A stretch of DNA of 64,000 nt from contig JBDRRF010000005.1 of NCBI GenBank assembly GCA_043825875.1, positions 1 through 64,000 on the forward strand, given 5' to 3'. The notes below the pieces were generated by a model, which saw only the letters and a list, made by a program, of their open reading frames with translations, ran no database searches and was not told the DNA's origin. This DNA comes from Pseudomonadota bacterium. Its GTDB lineage: Bacteria; Desulfobacterota; Desulfobacteria; Desulfobacterales; RPRI01. Shown here one piece after another: positions 1,475 to 64,000 of this stretch. A program made the translations under genes and the position numbers. How positions within the stretch are numbered: the stretch's first letter is position 1; each line of letters starts with the position of its first letter.

Positions 1475-4400
1475 TTAAAATTCTGACATATGTTCTAATA
1501 ATGGAATAAATACGGATTCCGATATTTTTATAAATGAATCATTAAATATATCAAGAGAGTCTGTTTGCCCGAAACAAGTTTTGTAATACAGATCATAAGA
1601 AGTCATCCGGTTATAACCGCCTTCCAATTTATTGCAAACATCATTTATCGCATCTTTAATATTTTTATTGCCAATGTGAACTTGCCTTACATACTCGTAA
1701 GATAAATCAGGAAAAAAATTAAGTGGGTTTAAAAGGCCTTCCCAGTAAAGGTCAAGAAGCTTTGCGAGAATATCCCGGCTGTTTGAGGTATGTTTAAATC
1801 CAACTTCTTTATCCATACAAATAAGCAATGAGCTAAGTTGTTTTTTATTATAATATGTTGAACATAAGGCAAGATGATATAACCATGACTTGATAATATC
1901 TTTTGCTTTCATTGTAGCATATCTTAAGTTGATTATGCCGTCATCATGACAATTATCTAACCTTCCTGTTAATGAAAAACTATTTATTGTAATATCAAGT
2001 TCTAAAGAAGATAATATTTTACCTTCTTTGGCAGCTTCAGTTTTTTCTATAAAATTTTTTGCATCAATACTTGATTCGTTTAGCAGTATATCCCCGATTT
2101 TTTCATGGGGAAGCGTACCTTGTGATTTATATGAATTGAGACAAAAATCTAAAGATTTGCCTGCCTGTAAATCTGCCAAAAGGTTTTGATTAACCAGATA
2201 ATTATCAAGACCAGTCAAAGAAAAAATCTCTTTATCCGGTAAAGCGTATTGTACTTCTTCAAAATATATTCCTAGTCGTTTTTGAAGAAGATATTTTGCA
2301 GGATTTGCGAAAAAACTGCTCAAGGAATCAATATCTACTATTTTCCATTCATCAGAAGGAAAAGAGAGTTTGTTTGAAATAAAAGGGATATTGTCTTTTT
2401 CTGTAAGCCTGCTTTCATTTAAGCTGCATGCCGCGAGCATATTATCTTCTGAGTAACTGAAAAGCTTTGAGGAATCTTTAAAATAATCCGGAGAAAAAGC
2501 CTGGAGCTTATGAGAAGTTATCATCTTGTCATGGGTGAACCCAAAGCCTTGCTTGATATAATCAAGAAGCTCGCTTACTATTACAGAAGGCGGTATCAAG
2601 CTGTTATCCTGGATGCTTTGCCCGACATAGCTTATATAAAATATTTTTCTTGCGCTTATTAAACCTTCAAGAAATAGATATTTATCATCATTTTTCTTTG
2701 ATCTATCACCCGGTCTGGGATCGCTTGCCATAAGGTCAAAGCTGTATGAATATGAACTTCTTGGGAAAGCATCATTATTCATTCCAAGAATACATATAAC
2801 TTTGAAAGGTATGCTTCTCATTGGAAGCATAGAACAAAATGTTATACCTTTTGTTTTAAATCCGGATACGCTATATTCATTTTCGAGTTTTTTCCTTAAA
2901 TAATATTTAATAATATCAAATTCCAGGTCTTTATCAAAACCTGAAAGCCTGGCATTGTTTAGCAAGTCTCCCAAAACTTTGCGTATATACTGTATGCCAT
3001 GCTGTATCTCATCATTTGTTGTAAAAAAGGTATCAATAATTTCCGAAAGAAGAGTATGCCATTTTTCTATTGTTTGAGATCCTTTTAGCGATTTTCTTAA
3101 ATCAAAGATTTTTTCCAAGAACTCAAGGAAGTTTCCCAATATATTTGCATCAGAGCCCTCGATTTCGCTAAAAGGAAGGATGCCCATATACATAGAATCG
3201 TTATGCTGGGCACCTTTATGGCACATAGTATAGCCCAAGAGCAGTCTTTTTATTCCGGCCTTCCATGTGTTTTCAGAAATTTCAGGAAGACCCAAAGCTG
3301 TTTTATGGGCTCCGTCAATACCCCATCTGATTCTGGTATCTTGCAGCCAACCTCTTATGGTTTCGAGTTCGGATTCAACAAGCCCAAATTTTTCTTTAAT
3401 TCCCGGATATTCTAAAATCGCCATTACATGTGAAACTTCAAATCTGCTCTTACTCAAATCGAGGATAGATAAAAAGCCATCTATGATTTCGTTTTCTTTT
3501 CTTATGGCTCTATCTGAAATGGAAAAAGGAATATGCGGTTCATTATCATCTCTGTTATCAAATACTGCATTGATAAATGGAGTATAAACTTCTATATCCG
3601 GTGCCATTACAAGAATATCATCCGGCAAAATATCAGGATAATCTTCAAACATAGAAAGAAGATTATCGTAAAGCACCTCTATTTCCCTTGTTTGGCTATG
3701 GCATGAATGAAACTGTATGGAATGATCCGGGCCTTCAGGTTTGTAATGATTATCAGAGACATTTCTTTCTTTAAGGTTTAAAATGTCGGATTGTATGCAT
3801 GAAAGTATATCAATGCTTTTCTGATCCTCAAATTCTTCAATTAATATATGTTCGGCAGAAGTAATATATTCGAAAAAAGTTTTACCAAGCTCTCCTAAAG
3901 ATGATAATATGCTGTTTCCCTTTTCAATATGTAAATATTCTTCTTTTATTTTTGTTACATATTTCTTCTTTATTTTACCGGCTTCTTTGTCTGTAAGTAT
4001 ATCTGTCCAGTATTGGTTGCAAGGATTTAAAATAAACATATTAATTTCAACGGTATTTGCTAATTCTTCAATAAGTTGCATATGAAAATGCGGAAGGGAT
4101 GATATGCCAAAAACAGATACTCGTTCAAATAACTTTCCAGAATCAAAAGCCTGGGCTTTAAGTTTTTCAATTAGGGTTTTTTGCAGGTAAGGCCTGTGAC
4201 ATTTTTCATTTTCTTTTATGATTTCTTGCCATAAAATTGCCTGCCACTTATGGTTTATTTTGTTTTCTTCTTTTTTGTTTTCCCAGGAAAAAATAAAATC
4301 CGGTCTGAAAACTGTATACTGATCAAAAAGATTGGCAATTTTTTCGGAAATCTCAAAAAGCTTTAAACTGCTTTTATCGTTTTTAAGATATCTTTTTAAA

Positions 4401-59700: not shown

Positions 59701-60735
59701 GGCCGATATGAAGAAGCCGTTGAGGCCTATAATAAATCACTCAATATCAAAAAGGAGGCCTTCGGCAGTGACGAACACCCCGAATCTCTTCCCACCCGGA
59801 CAAATCTGGGAATGGCATTGGCAAAGATGGGACGAATTGATCAGGCGAGCAGAGAAATGGACCGAGCCTTATCTATTGCCAGAACTATGGGGCATCCTTT
59901 TCATACCGGCAACATCCTGGTTTTGTATGCACAGGTTGAAGCAGCCCGCAACACCCAAAAAGCCATAGATATGGCAGTAGAAGCTGAAGCTTTGTTAATG
60001 CAGCTATTCGAAACTTCGCACCCCACGCTGCAAGAAGTGAGGGCATTGATCGCCGGGTTGAAGGGCGGGCCTGAGCCTGAATCTGATCCTGCCACAGGGC
60101 AAAAAAAACAAAGGGCAAAAGTTACTCCGGATATGCTCAAAGACTGGGCTCATGAGCTGCTACATGGTGTTCCATCTGTTTCCAGGGTTGTGTTTGTCCA
60201 TCTGGCTCAGCGTATTGCATTGTTGATTTCCACTCAGGGCATCCTCACTCAATTGGCTGTGCGGATGGGTAAACCCGGATTAGAACTGGAAGATCCCACT
60301 GCGCTTGAGATGCCGGAAGATATGCCACCCGAACAGATCCAGGAATTAAAGTCCAGGCTTGCCTACATTAAGGCATTGATGAAAACGATGGTTGAGGACA
60401 TTAATGACAGGCTACGAGATTACCCCGAACAAAACGGGCGGATTGTATTAAATGAAGACCTGTCATGTACTGTTCCCGATGGGCTTTCAACCGTGCTGTT
60501 AGACGAAGCCGCAGCGATTATTTTAGTCGGTTCAGACGAATTGCTGCGGGCGGAACTTGACCTTGTTTTGAAGGGATTATCCATCCTGTTAAAAGATGAA
60601 GATGATCCGGCCGCAATTGGACTGCCGACCACTTTGCTCCGGAGATTGCCGGATCAGCGGGAAAAAATCGTTAACACGCTGAAGCCATTTTGCTCTGAAA
60701 GACAGAAGAAGCTCTTATTGGAAACGAAAGGATAA
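56716..60735 (+). CDS. CHAT (caspase-like) protease fused to a STAND/NB-ARC-like ATPase and TPRs
   Basis: LPWELL, VHFTGHG (His), YLASC (Cys), FIGR, GLGGIGKT, VYLDNAE, 43-aa TPRs. Confidence 0.88.
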   Translation: MTEFDTLPDEMILNIHSIDKTVPENLTVTLGGREILEPAFVFKNEKFIQKLEQLEEMIRLPLPCDAKGVMGSKENDLESAIYEQSVTIGTGLADILDDMGRQTLTEMMNSTKIPLLRIVVDGDWADRVLALPWELLYIDGRFPVKEARLDVVREVSVANAPGLEPQTTPFRVLVHIAAPEADDGQSSLMYEEEAYRLVLSMQQVAKDAVAFSDLGTARDLVRAVRNINPTVVHFTGHGSPGTLLFENEIGENAEIPISYLLTQMRASAVGEQPVLPQVFYLASCYGASGTANFTPAAKCGYRQLSELGAVKGEGPSTATTIQRQGCPAVVAYFGPVGDQLSTRAETIFYSGLAAGKKLTESVRSARIDMAGVLGEKDKYYRYPLGWAQLALYLRGNDISISKAKTGGKAADDIYVLEQQLYRPDSPVHSLDMLHSGIDGFIGRRKDLAMLGQRHIKGQRLFVLYGLGGIGKTALAVNLIPKLGIDQDKIVILDAARADKAANPFQDLWEQMTDQLQDAFPDILASILETYKQKQDPEILLGAMIAAVKDPWLVYLDNAESLQVKVNSENGDLGAWASQGISQWWQIVAAGAFHGGSLTLMATTRYLWEGIERKDSWQPGVLRPSDIARMMRWFPYLRQISHENKMKIIEWLNGHARALIYLEGLFKEILDSQTPEDDISAERWQAAIEQALPQTDEKLENEDLMLSHILKRLDTPAKDQLRVLTALRSPAPLDALNSLGDQTGRLESLGLITKFSGKFYGMHASVSRFVELLCGPAGPEDHLRIGLWYDDAYKAEKRLVFVEEAVYHLVTAEKADLAATPAADLASHYLATLRYAESGQVIDSVIALSPSADLTENLLAIRGYLHNALGRYEFAAADFQEMIESARKRETEGIAEAQGLHGLANALVELGRYDEAVEAFNKSLGITKQIYGTEAHPDYATSIHGLANALVRLGRYEEAVEAFNQSLSIKKRIYGSVTHPDYAASLSGLANALSSLGRYEEAVEAYNKSLNIKKEAFGSDEHPESLPTRTNLGMALAKMGRIDQASREMDRALSIARTMGHPFHTGNILVLYAQVEAARNTQKAIDMAVEAEALLMQLFETSHPTLQEVRALIAGLKGGPEPESDPATGQKKQRAKVTPDMLKDWAHELLHGVPSVSRVVFVHLAQRIALLISTQGILTQLAVRMGKPGLELEDPTALEMPEDMPPEQIQELKSRLAYIKALMKTMVEDINDRLRDYPEQNGRIVLNEDLSCTVPDGLSTVLLDEAAAIILVGSDELLRAELDLVLKGLSILLKDEDDPAAIGLPTTLLRRLPDQREKIVNTLKPFCSERQKKLLLETKG

Positions 60736-60994
60736 AGGGTAGTAATAGATACATAACAGTTTAGTCTATAATTTAACCTAACTGGCTCAGTGGATTTATT
60801 TATCCTCCCGCTCAGTTCTGCCTTCAGATAAACCTCATTTCTGTATTTGACAATAGGTAAGACCTAAAGAAAATGCCCTAAACAAATTGCCGATAAACTC
60901 TATGCAAGTTCACTGTCGGCCGATTATTCATATTTGAAGATAAAAAATCTGACAATATAAAACTTCATATCTTTTTCCAGGTCTATAAGGTCTG

Positions 60995-61063
60995 AAAAAG
61001 GTAGCGGCCAGCCGGAATTAATCCGGTTGGCCGCTAAGGAAAAGAAAAGATTTTTGGGGTTGT
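60995..61063 (-). ncRNA. Candidate sigma54-dependent small RNA
   Basis: Minus-strand sigma54 promoter directly upstream, CU-rich stretch, then hairpin UAGCGGCCAACCGGA-UUAAU-UCCGGCUGGCCGCUA and CCUUUUU. Confidence 0.5.
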
Positions 61064-61073
61064 TTATAATTAT

Positions 61074-61090
61074 TGCAAATAACTTGCCAA
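61074..61090 (-). promoter_or_regulatory. Sigma54 -24/-12 promoter pointing away from nifH
   Basis: TTGGCAAGTTATTTGCA with correct GG-N10-GC spacing. Confidence 0.65.
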
Positions 61091-61217
61091 TCCGGAATTT
61101 TATTTAATATTAATAGTAGATAATATATAAAACAATAAAACAAGATAGTTATAGCCAGCTATTTTTTTGTTTCTCATTAATAAATATTTTACAGATTTCA
61201 TGCCATTTGCATTAAAC

Positions 61218-61249
61218 TCAAAATAATGACACCAGTGTCATTATTTTGA
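61218..61249. promoter_or_regulatory. Perfect 15-bp inverted repeat, candidate enhancer-binding site
   Basis: TCAAAATAATGACAC-CA-GTGTCATTATTTTGA. Confidence 0.6.
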
Positions 61250-61493
61250 TACTTTATTTATACTTCTTGGGTCTTCTCCTGCTTCTTTTCCCTGATTTTC
61301 TTCCGCCCTTAAATTTAAGTGGGCAAAAAGTTTTAAACAATAACAAAATTACATAATTGTAGTAGTAAAGCTTATATATTGCAATTATGTATCATAAATA
61401 TATCTTCATAAGTAACTGTACTTATCAGCAACAAGCCAATAATATATATTAATATAAAGCATTTAAAACCATTTAATCGGATTTAATATCTTG

Positions 61494-61509
61494 TGGCATA
61501 ACTCTTGTA
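61494..61509 (+). promoter_or_regulatory. Probable sigma54 promoter of nifH
   Basis: TGGCAT-AACTC-TTGTA (GT variant at -12), about 55 nt before the ATG. Confidence 0.55.
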
Positions 61510-61523
61510 ATAAGTAATATTAA

Positions 61524-62387
<864 letters not shown>

Positions 62388-62405
62388 AGAAGAAAGGAAT
62401 TAATC

Positions 62406-62762
62406 ATGATTATGATCAGATCAATTGTCAGGCCGGAAAAAGTTGACGCAGTACTAGCTGCATTGATGGAAGCAGGCTTTCCCGGTGTAACAAAATTATC
62501 GGTTGTCGGACGCGGGAAGCAACGTGGGATTAAAATCGGCGAAATTACCTACGATGAGATCCCTAAAGAAATGCTGCTAACAATCGTCAAGGACAAGGAG
62601 AAGGATTTTGTCATTAAAACAATTTTAAAAGCGGCACGCACCGGAGATAAGGGTGCTTATGGCGATGGAAAGATATTCATTGTGCCTGTAGAGGAAGTTT
62701 ATACCATCAGTTCAGGTATAAAAGAGGATGCCGGAGGTAATATTGAAGAGGTGAAAATATGA
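62406..62762 (+). CDS. nifI1: P-II family nitrogenase regulator NifI1
   Basis: IVRPEK, GRGKQRG, YDEIPK, GDGKIF; between nifH and nifD. Confidence 0.9.
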   Translation: MIMIRSIVRPEKVDAVLAALMEAGFPGVTKLSVVGRGKQRGIKIGEITYDEIPKEMLLTIVKDKEKDFVIKTILKAARTGDKGAYGDGKIFIVPVEEVYTISSGIKEDAGGNIEEVKI

Positions 62763-63139
62763 AGGAAATATTGGCCATTATCCGAATGAACATGATGAAC
62801 CGGACAAAAACCGCCCTTTCCGAAGCGGGTATTTCCTCCATAACTGCGGGAAGTGTCCTTGGGCGGGGTAAAGGCCTTATAGATCTTCAACTGCTCAAAG
62901 GTGCCGAAAAAGGTTATGAAGAGGCCGTTTCACTTTTAGGGCAGAGCAACAGGCTTATACCAAAACGTATCTTAATTATCACTATTCCTAATAAACTTGT
63001 GAAAAAAACCGTAAAAACAATAATGAAAGTAAACAAAACCGGAAAATCCGGAGATGGTATTATTTGTGTAATGCCATGCCATGATGCTGTTAGAGTACGC
63101 ACGGGTGAAAGTGGTGATGATGTTTTAGATGATGTTTGA
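62759..63139 (+). CDS. nifI2: P-II family nitrogenase regulator NifI2
   Basis: KEILAIIRMN, GRGKG, LIPKR, RVRTGESG. Confidence 0.9.
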   Translation: MKEILAIIRMNMMNRTKTALSEAGISSITAGSVLGRGKGLIDLQLLKGAEKGYEEAVSLLGQSNRLIPKRILIITIPNKLVKKTVKTIMKVNKTGKSGDGIICVMPCHDAVRVRTGESGDDVLDDV

Positions 63140-63195
63140 GATGACGTTTGATTTGAAGCGCCAACAATAATTGTTCAAAAGAGGAGATGCTTAAA

Positions 63196-64000
63196 ATGGC
63201 GTTACCTGAAGAAAATATTAAAATTGATATTGATGGATATACTCCTGAAGAAATCAAAGAAGAAATGTTGCTGCAGTATCCACCTAAAGTTGCCCGTAAG
63301 AGGGCAAAGCAGATCATAGTCAATAAGTTTGGAGAAGACGGTGAAGTGGGCGATATCAGTCCAAACGTTCGGACAGTTCCGGGATTGATTGGTCAGCGGG
63401 GATGTTGTTATGCCGGTTGCAAGGGTGTTGTTTTAGGTCCGACAAGAGATATTATAAACATTACCCATGGGCCGATAGGATGCGGGTTCTATAGTTGGTT
63501 AACCCGCAGGAACCAGACTGATGCCAGTACTACTCCGGATAATCATAATTTTATGACTTACTGTTTTTCTACCGATATGCAGGATGAACAGATCATATTC
63601 GGGGGAGAAAAAAAACTCAGGCAGGCCATACAGGAAGCATATGACAATTTCCATCCAAAAGCGATTGCTGTTTTTGCTACCTGTCCCGTGGGTTTGATTG
63701 GAGACGATATTCATACTGTTTGTCGTGAAATGAAGGAAAAACTTGGAATAAATGTCTTTGGTTTCAGTTGTGAGGGATACAAGGGAGTGAGCCAGTCAGC
63801 AGGCCATCACATTGCAAATAACGGTATCTTTACCCATGTGGTAGGTACTGATGATACTGAGCGGGATGGCAAATATAAAATTAATCTACTGGGAGAATAT
63901 AATATCGGTGGAGATGCATTTGAAATAGAGCGGATCTTTGAAAAATGCGGCATTACTTTAATTTCTACTTTCAGCGGAAATTCCAGCATAGATAAATTCG
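63196..64000 (+). CDS. nifD: Nitrogenase MoFe protein alpha chain, N-terminal part (runs off the right edge)
   Basis: Manual translation: MALPEE...YPPKVARKR...RGCCYAGCKGVV...HGPIGC...TCPVGLIGDD...CEGYKGVSQSAGHH. Confidence 0.95.
   Translation, partial: MALPEENIKIDIDGYTPEEIKEEMLLQYPPKVARKRAKQIIVNKFGEDGEVGDISPNVRTVPGLIGQRGCCYAGCKGVVLGPTRDIINITHGPIGCGFYSWLTRRNQTDASTTPDNHNFMTYCFSTDMQDEQIIFGGEKKLRQAIQEAYDNFHPKAIAVFATCPVGLIGDDIHTVCREMKEKLGINVFGFSCEGYKGVSQSAGHHIANNGIFTHVVGTDDTERDGKYKINLLGEYNIGGDAFEIERIFEKCGITLISTFSGNSSIDKF

Follow-up and report, generated by a model that had tools for sequence, protein, structure and literature searches.

A predicted sigma-54-dependent small RNA encoded upstream of nifH belongs to a Desulfobacterales family with an anti-Shine-Dalgarno seed

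We analyzed the first 64,000 nt of contig JBDRRF010000005.1 from a bacterium of the order Desulfobacterales (assembly GCA_043825875.1; this whole stretch is called the window below) and found that the minus strand upstream of nifH very probably encodes a regulatory RNA of ~69 nt. The segment 60995-61063 is likely to be a genuine small-RNA gene, one of four paralogs in this genome and a member of a conserved Desulfobacterales family that appears to be driven by a regulator and to carry an anti-Shine-Dalgarno seed. The initial annotation of this DNA had proposed a sigma-54-driven, intrinsically terminated RNA of ~70 nt with an exposed CU-rich seed, and the comparative evidence backed that proposal. 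It had also suggested that the RNA shares an enhancer region with the nif genes and tunes the translation of nifH; these two suggestions fared poorly, as described below. Throughout the text G000 denotes the genome of the window, G008 its nearest sister species, and G011, G013 and G016 relatives of the same genus, while the copy of the RNA gene in the window is referred to as the nif-linked copy.

The features of the locus are collected in Table 1. The promoter TGGCAAGTTATTTGCA was found where the initial annotation had placed it, apart from one preceding T that had been counted in (61090), and its geometry, with GG at -25/-24 and GC at -13/-12, put the +1 at ~61063, in agreement with the earlier estimate. 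The view that no open reading frame (ORF) lies behind the promoter also held, since no ATG was found on the minus strand from the +1 to the hairpin and the single overlapping ORF (41 aa, 61018-61143, minus) begins upstream of the promoter. The RNA transcribed from this promoter would begin with 29 nt that were unpaired in both the minimum-energy and the centroid folds. The other elements described earlier, namely the unstructured CU-rich stretch, the 15-position stem with one mismatch and a U tract that ends at 60995 and occurs on the minus strand only, were all present. The hairpin folded at -27.2 kcal/mol (z -6.5) and none of 200 shuffled sequences folded equally well; it has the makeup of an intrinsic terminator, as the GC-rich stem-loop is succeeded on the transcribed strand by CC and a run of U residues. 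A simple terminator scan did not have this hairpin among its matches, the sole one listed being a palindrome at 61218-61249. On its own, the loose sigma-54 pattern should turn up 0.74 times per window by chance, and 50 of 100 shuffles contained it at least once. Since the promoter pattern is within chance and the hairpin was missed by the terminator scan, the case for the RNA leans on comparative evidence.

Four copies of the RNA unit were found in G000, the nif-linked one included. BLAST of the 121-nt unit against this genome detected paralogs on contig C5 at ~80.2 kb (85% identity, beyond the window) and on C76 (79%), and the fourth copy, on C74, was found by a covariance model only. Among the same-genus relatives, G008 had three copies, one of them syntenic beside nifH in a region 83% identical to the window unit; G011 had three, and G013 and G016 had at least one each. 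In an alignment of 11 same-genus copies TGGCA...TTGC was invariant, the 5' stretch varied, and both the CU-rich block and the hairpin were conserved. The TGGCA and TTGC of the TGGCAAGTTATTTGCA-type promoter, unchanged in all 11 copies, were also conserved across the order. We built two covariance models, R1 and R2, each with the window copy in its seed alignment. R1 matched 70 of the 151 sampled genomes of the order, in 49 of 109 genera, and R2 matched 12 of the 146 genomes from the rest of the phylum, where the units were recognizably alike. A pattern scan of named genome records identified at least 120 loci; among the 80 listed, almost all were named as Desulfobacterales or as 'delta proteobacterium', and the genera among the matches listed included Desulfonema, Desulfosarcina, Desulfatitalea, Desulfatibacillum and Desulfococcus. 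About four odd records among these listed matches may be chance matches or mis-binned contigs. A cmscan of 60500-61700 against Rfam 15 (E up to 10) gave six weak matches at chance level, the best with 21.2 bits against a gathering threshold of 49, and none to a sigma-54 small-RNA family; our literature search found no description of the Desulfobacterales RNA family. Additional copies, in tandem or dispersed, occur in other genomes of the order. Two RNA copies lie 500 bp apart in G064 (C1:4038524-4039136) and 2.7 kb apart in G113 (C2:347375-350196), and one of the paralogs of G149 (C1:1170525 and 1642793) has a wholly different but fully paired hairpin sequence.

We then assessed the hairpin and its strand in a covariation set of 40 aligned family members; the alignment was fitted to the model, which favors structure. 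The promoter, seed, hairpin and U tract stood at fixed spacing in all 40 loci. Across the members 92.8% of the hairpin cells paired, and sliding the partner column lowered the pairing to 13-45%. Compensatory double changes occurred in 14 of the 15 hairpin pairs, in 82 cells as compared to 18.5 in shuffles, and none of the 500 shuffles reached 82. The strand was indicated by two features of the same alignment. The proposed RNA strand had 41 G.U cells and only 7 A.C cells, the latter being G.U on the other strand, and the 9 nt after the stem held a mean of 6.1 T on the RNA strand as compared to 0.1 on the other. In the nif-linked copy of G008, all four hairpin substitutions yielded G.U on the RNA strand.

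The surroundings of the copies pointed to a regulator. At 14 of 28 order-wide loci a gene for a response-regulator activator with receiver, sigma-54 interaction and HTH_8 domains lay on the same strand, 200-300 nt upstream of the RNA. An activator gene was likewise upstream in 4 of the 8 loci outside the order, and the arrangement of histidine kinase, activator and RNA was also seen at a G011 copy and at the C74 copy of G000. From this gene order, the core copy of the family appears to belong to a dedicated NtrC-family two-component system. The two-component pair reached no NCBIfam equivalog cut-off, the best matches (AtoS/AtoC and ZraS/ZraR) being below the cut-offs, and residues 1-240 of the kinase, its sensor part, had no Pfam domain. 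Upstream of the promoters we identified GTTCA-N6-TGAAC palindromes, two or three of them, placed consistently at about -137, -215 and -291. At least one such site was present in 32 of the 40 loci and at least two in 30, as compared to 4.8 of 40 in shuffles. The sites occur also at copies that do not adjoin the regulator gene, and five of the 10 sites in the G000 genome are upstream of its three canonical copies; we infer that a single two-component system activates every canonical copy. The sigma-54 machinery itself was evident in G000, with a PF04552 match for rpoN (208 bits), ~38 strong matches to sigma-54 activators and 66 strict -24/-12 motifs, 45 of which were intergenic in a genome that is 19% non-coding by crude gene calls.

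The family seed ends just 5' of the hairpin, with CUCCUU in copies of this genus and with CCUCCUU in the order as a whole, the sequence of the 16S rRNA anti-Shine-Dalgarno tail. In many genera CAU lies 7 nt upstream, so that the complement is an ideal ribosome-binding site (RBS) plus AUG. A seed that copies the anti-Shine-Dalgarno sequence suggests that the RNA probably blocks translation starts, and it would do so by pairing with strong purine-rich initiation regions and keeping the 30S subunit from binding. No Hfq family match was found in G000, a 99.8%-complete assembly, so such action would be Hfq-independent. We predicted targets by duplex energy over 4246 crude start regions of G000. The best predicted target of the core copy was a Porin_5 protein, with a 16-bp helix, and a TonB-dependent receptor was within the top four for three paralogs. 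Proteins with a signal-peptide-like start were weakly enriched among the top targets (best p 0.013, uncorrected), not above a control with the plain 16S anti-Shine-Dalgarno sequence. We searched five genomes for the 17-nt sequence complementary to the order-wide seed, allowing two mismatches, and found no long trans site outside the RNA genes. The four exact matches and the one with a single mismatch were all RNA genes read in the opposite orientation. A further paralog with a different hairpin was among the exact matches, and the matches with two mismatches were mostly ordinary-looking RBSs. As a separate observation, the Porin_5 family (E up to 1e-30) was found in only 5 of 17 genus genomes, G000, G008, G011, G013 and G016; these are the larger genomes and also those with BLAST-detectable, mostly multi-copy RNA.

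The nif-linked copy differs from its paralogs upstream of the promoter. The GTTCA-N6-TGAAC sites, kept in 10 of 12 same-genus copies, are missing in both nif-linked ones. At the position of these sites in the other paralogs, the window copy aligns with a perfect 32-bp palindrome (61218-61249), a candidate site for the enhancer-binding protein of this copy. The palindrome is unique in the G000 genome, with no other copies near sigma-54 promoters, and is fully conserved in the syntenic G008 copy; the simple scan rated it terminator-like on the plus strand. With the family sites missing and the palindrome in their place, this copy may have come under another activator or may have lost its control. 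Closer to the promoter, two boxes common to the paralogs, TATAACTATCTT and ATTAATGAGAAA, may be sites for an architectural protein or an activator. At its end the seed of the nif-linked copy reads UUCCUU, as compared to the CUCCUU or CCUCCUU of the family, and is still CU-rich and unpaired.

The unit thus comprises activator sites ~130-300 bp upstream, then the -24/-12 promoter for sigma-54, ~20 nt of 5' sequence that varies between copies, the CU-rich seed and an intrinsic terminator. We propose a model in which the ancestral copy is the one directly downstream of the genes for a histidine kinase and an NtrC-type response regulator. Acting at the repeated GTTCA-N6-TGAAC sites, the regulator would activate every canonical copy, and the RNAs would pair with purine-rich RBSs and block translation initiation without Hfq. 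The nif-linked copy would be a young duplicate, common to G000 and its nearest sister species only, that kept the promoter, hairpin and terminator, lost the canonical sites, has the 32-bp palindrome instead, and diverged in its seed.

Several points weigh against this model or limit the evidence for it. No RNA data set was listed as covering 59800-63200, and contigs of two metatranscriptomes, from the same study as a DNA data set that contains the locus, gave no match over 60600-62500, a result that carries no information on expression. The scores of the window copy (113.6 bits for R1, 99.1 bits for R2) follow by construction from its place within the seed alignments, and both models contain the promoter, so their matches are skewed to units with a sigma-54 promoter. 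Within 300 nt upstream of the window copy there was no GTTCA-N6-TGAAC site even at 8 or more of 10 matching positions, and the same was true of the nif-linked copy of G008; since the activator sites are missing, the nif-linked copy may be silent or differently controlled. Its seed has diverged from the genus consensus by several substitutions and a 3-nt gap. The predicted target energies correlated with plain anti-Shine-Dalgarno pairing (r 0.53-0.66), and of the 11 Porin_5 orthologs and paralogs compared, only those of G000 and G008 had the extended pairing.

The suggested action on nifH rests on a predicted pairing. The 13-nt pairing of 61048-61036 with 61551-61563 that the initial annotation described, with one G-U, was indeed present and had an energy of -15.5 kcal/mol. 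It would be expected if the nif-linked copy were a nitrogen-controlled riboregulator that throttles NifH translation by pairing from the Shine-Dalgarno sequence to the AUG, with an enhancer shared or coordinated with nifH, a reading that we consider unlikely. A helix of at least 13 bp with the nif-linked seed was reached in only 50 of the 4246 start regions, and just 0.3% of 2000 shuffled seeds did as well against nifH; both the seed and the site are of low complexity, and for the seed the initial annotation had already cautioned that the match could be due to chance. By duplex energy nifH ranked 143 of 4246 for the nif-linked copy as compared to 922, 1866 and 2413 for the other three paralogs, although 142 start regions thus scored better. 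The nifH start region of G008 is the same as that of G000, but the nif-linked RNA of G008 retains an ordinary family seed, which gives a 10-bp helix of -16.3 kcal/mol, so the pairing has neither co-evolved nor improved. The loss of the family sites and the gain of a unique palindrome would fit rewiring to another activator, and a NifA-like activator gene is present on contig C65 of G000. On the other hand, the promoter-seed-terminator unit, whose conservation upstream of nifH in relatives the initial annotation had named as a check, recurs across the order but adjoins nifH only in G000 and G008. No RNA copy was found upstream of nifH in G011 and G013 even with the model run unfiltered, though the nifH promoter and RBS are conserved there, and the palindrome was missing from the same two regions. 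The elements conserved upstream of nifH in G008, G011 and G013 were the promoter TGGCATAACTNTTGT and TACA-N4-TGTA repeats (inverted repeats at 61345-61400), and the form TGGCATAACTCTTGT of the promoter was kept in all three. Since the nifH elements are present in G011 and G013 without the RNA or the palindrome, the palindrome travels with the RNA unit and not with nifH; since these elements also differ from the palindrome, there is no sign of a shared enhancer. Neither a classical NifA site (TGT-N10-ACA) nor an IHF-like pattern (WATCAWNNNNTTR) was found in 60736-61562. We likewise consider it unlikely that nifH is the physiological target of the nif-linked RNA. Most of the nifH match can be put down to a generic anti-Shine-Dalgarno seed that pairs with a purine-rich RBS, and nothing specific ties this RNA to nitrogen fixation. 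It seems quite unlikely to us that the nif locus captured a paralog and rewired it, with a palindromic enhancer for a different activator (e.g. NifA-like or NtrC-like) and a seed changed to form the 13-bp nifH duplex. If this were true, an Hfq-less sulfate reducer would have a fast post-transcriptional brake on nitrogenase reductase synthesis, and the sub-functionalization of a small RNA by enhancer swap would have been caught in the act.

The absence of the family sites from both nif-linked copies could also mean that the window copy is a decaying duplicate that drifts, makes little or no RNA and has no function of its own. The substitutions and gap in its seed are consistent with decay, as is the strong difference between the first ~20 transcribed nt of G000 and G008, although this 5' stretch is variable throughout the family anyway. 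Very unlikely as we hold it, this explanation has to account for a promoter core and flanks that are identical between the two species, a U tract that was kept, hairpin substitutions in G008 that all maintain pairing, and a palindrome that is 100% conserved with its flanks within a nifH intergenic region of only 81% identity (493 of 610 columns). The most radical alternative, that there is no base-pairing RNA gene here at all and that the locus is a chance motif beside the terminator of the upstream gene, codes for a short peptide on its other strand or is a mobile repeat, is extremely improbable in our view. Chance could supply the loose promoter pattern, at the frequency given above, but not readily the fixed spacing of the four elements in 40 loci, nor a T-run and a G.U pattern that are on the RNA strand only. 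The upstream gene on the plus strand ends at 60735, 266 nt from the hairpin region, and the plus strand has no T-run after the hairpin. In favor of a peptide gene, the reverse complement of the seed forms an RBS plus ATG in many order-wide copies and the peptides start with MKKLLG. We rejected such a gene: the RBS and start are missing in 9 of the 40 loci, a stop occurs within 10 codons in 17, 14 frames run off the stretch of ~110 nt, and the window copy has no ATG, so this gene is not conserved. The element is multi-copy, as a mobile repeat would be, but the core copy is syntenic with the regulator across families, unlike a mobile element. We therefore retain the small-RNA gene of a regulator-driven family as the likely explanation of the locus.

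Table 1. Coordinates of the RNA locus, of the neighboring nifH region and of loci with a second promoter
Feature	Position	Strand	Remarks
Sigma-54 -24/-12 promoter TGGCAAGTTATTTGCA	61089-61074	minus	exact motif match
Predicted small RNA, ~69 nt	61063-60995	minus	+1 from promoter geometry, 3' end within U tract
CU-rich single-stranded seed UCUUUUCUUUUCCUU	61050-61036	minus	unpaired in both folds, aligned to family seed columns
Terminator hairpin	61036-61002	minus	15 positions, 14 pairs and one A.C mismatch, 5-nt loop
U5 tract of intrinsic terminator	60999-60995	minus only	separated from stem by CC
Upstream box TATAACTATCTT	61153-61142	minus reading	conserved columns, 11-copy upstream alignment
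Upstream box ATTAATGAGAAA	61181-61170	minus reading	conserved columns, 11-copy upstream alignment
Perfect 32-bp AT-rich palindrome, core TGACAC-CA-GTGTCA	61218-61249		centered ~170 bp upstream of predicted +1
nifH sigma-54-like promoter TGGCATAACTCTTGT	61494-61508	plus	-12 element GT rather than GC
nifH Shine-Dalgarno through A of AUG, AAGGAGAAGAAAA	61551-61563	plus	complementary to 61048-61036, possible target site
nifH (274 aa)	61563-62387	plus	name by reading translation
PII-like ORFs downstream of nifH, then nifD start	62406-62762, 62759-63139	plus	names by reading translations
Second-promoter locus L017 (G000 C5 ~79.6-80.0 kb)	~2640-3013	minus	
Second-promoter locus L021	3018		
Second-promoter locus L022	4038		
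Second-promoter locus L026	3555		

Some neighbors of the family deserve mention. A second sigma-54 promoter, on the same strand and ~140-280 nt downstream of the first, was noted in four paralog loci. The second promoter stands ahead of a small cysteine-rich frame (~70 aa, read by eye from the DNA) in both G000 and G008, and the RBS of this frame contains GGAGGAAAG, which is complementary to the family seed; the ORF calls at the second-promoter region had no Pfam match. At the core locus, genes for a TPR protein and a PfkB kinase converge on the unit from the other side; the TPR homologue in L054 matches TPR_21, and the G000 copy is weakly like YbgF. At three loci outside the order in which the regulator is not the upstream neighbor (L181, L182 and L186), genes for two family-9 heptosyltransferases and one PMT_2 glycosyltransferase adjoin. 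These envelope-glycan and TPR neighbors give a faint hint of an envelope-related role.

The architecture of an NtrC-type two-component regulator with an adjacent sigma-54 small RNA is already known from other systems, and the Desulfobacterales system, as modeled here, would resemble LuxO-Qrr, GlrR-GlmY, Nla19-Pxr and DVU0679 with its RNA. In Enterobacteriaceae, GlmY is a sigma-54-dependent RNA under a dedicated NtrC-family regulator, with GlrK/GlrR, and acts by protein titration. The Qrr RNAs depend on Hfq, and Qrr1-5 of Vibrio are described as LuxO- and sigma-54-dependent. Both systems have, like ours, single or multi-copy sigma-54 RNAs with one dedicated NtrC-family regulator beside one copy; they differ in that no likeness of sequence or structure was seen (the Rfam scan was negative) and in that G000 has no Hfq match. 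Closer in phylogeny, the sulfate reducer Desulfovibrio vulgaris Hildenborough, of the same phylum and another order, is reported to have sigma-54-dependent noncoding RNAs of unknown function downstream of the response regulators DVU0679 (Dv_sRNA2) and DVU0653 (Rajeev et al. 2011, PMC3333781; Kazakov et al. 2015, PMC4641369). There too an NtrC-type two-component activator gene has its sigma-54 RNA target immediately downstream; the likeness noted is one of gene arrangement, and the main-text passages of these papers describe no anti-Shine-Dalgarno seed, dispersed paralogs or nif-linked copy. Pxr of Myxococcus and Cystobacter is described as lying downstream of nla19 and having a sigma-54 promoter, and its paralogs as having sigma-54 promoters of their own and diverged functions (PMC5568312). 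By the same account Pxr is ~108 nt long with two or three stem-loops, whereas the RNA here is ~69 nt with one terminator hairpin, and the Pxr paralogs are in tandem whereas the copies here are dispersed and match no Rfam family. Precedents for small-RNA control of the mRNAs of nitrogenase structural genes are given for Pseudomonas stutzeri NfiS (nifK) and NfiR (nifD) and for Methanosarcina mazei sRNA154 (nifH, nrpA and glnA); these RNAs are described as stabilizing nif mRNAs, whereas the pairing predicted here would mask the RBS (PMC9170634). NcS25 of Burkholderia cenocepacia is described as a small RNA that regulates an outer-membrane porin (PMC10117139). A porin likewise tops the predictions for the core copy here, but this prediction is not conserved within the genus.

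As far as nitrogen fixation is concerned, the nif-linked copy offers a lead of low probability, and its annotation as a nif regulator is unwarranted. The RNA family is apparently widespread in sulfate-reducing Desulfobacterales, new to Rfam 15 and undescribed. For genome annotation, it accounts for a group of sigma-54 promoters that look 'orphan' for want of a gene downstream. The small-RNA biology of these bacteria, which are key anaerobic cyclers of carbon, sulfur and nitrogen, is almost unexplored, and the family supplies a regulatory hypothesis for them, in which a dedicated kinase-activator pair would act through a defined DNA site on one to four anti-Shine-Dalgarno RNA outputs. The post-transcriptional regulon that this would imply is testable in cultivated members such as Desulfonema and Desulfosarcina.

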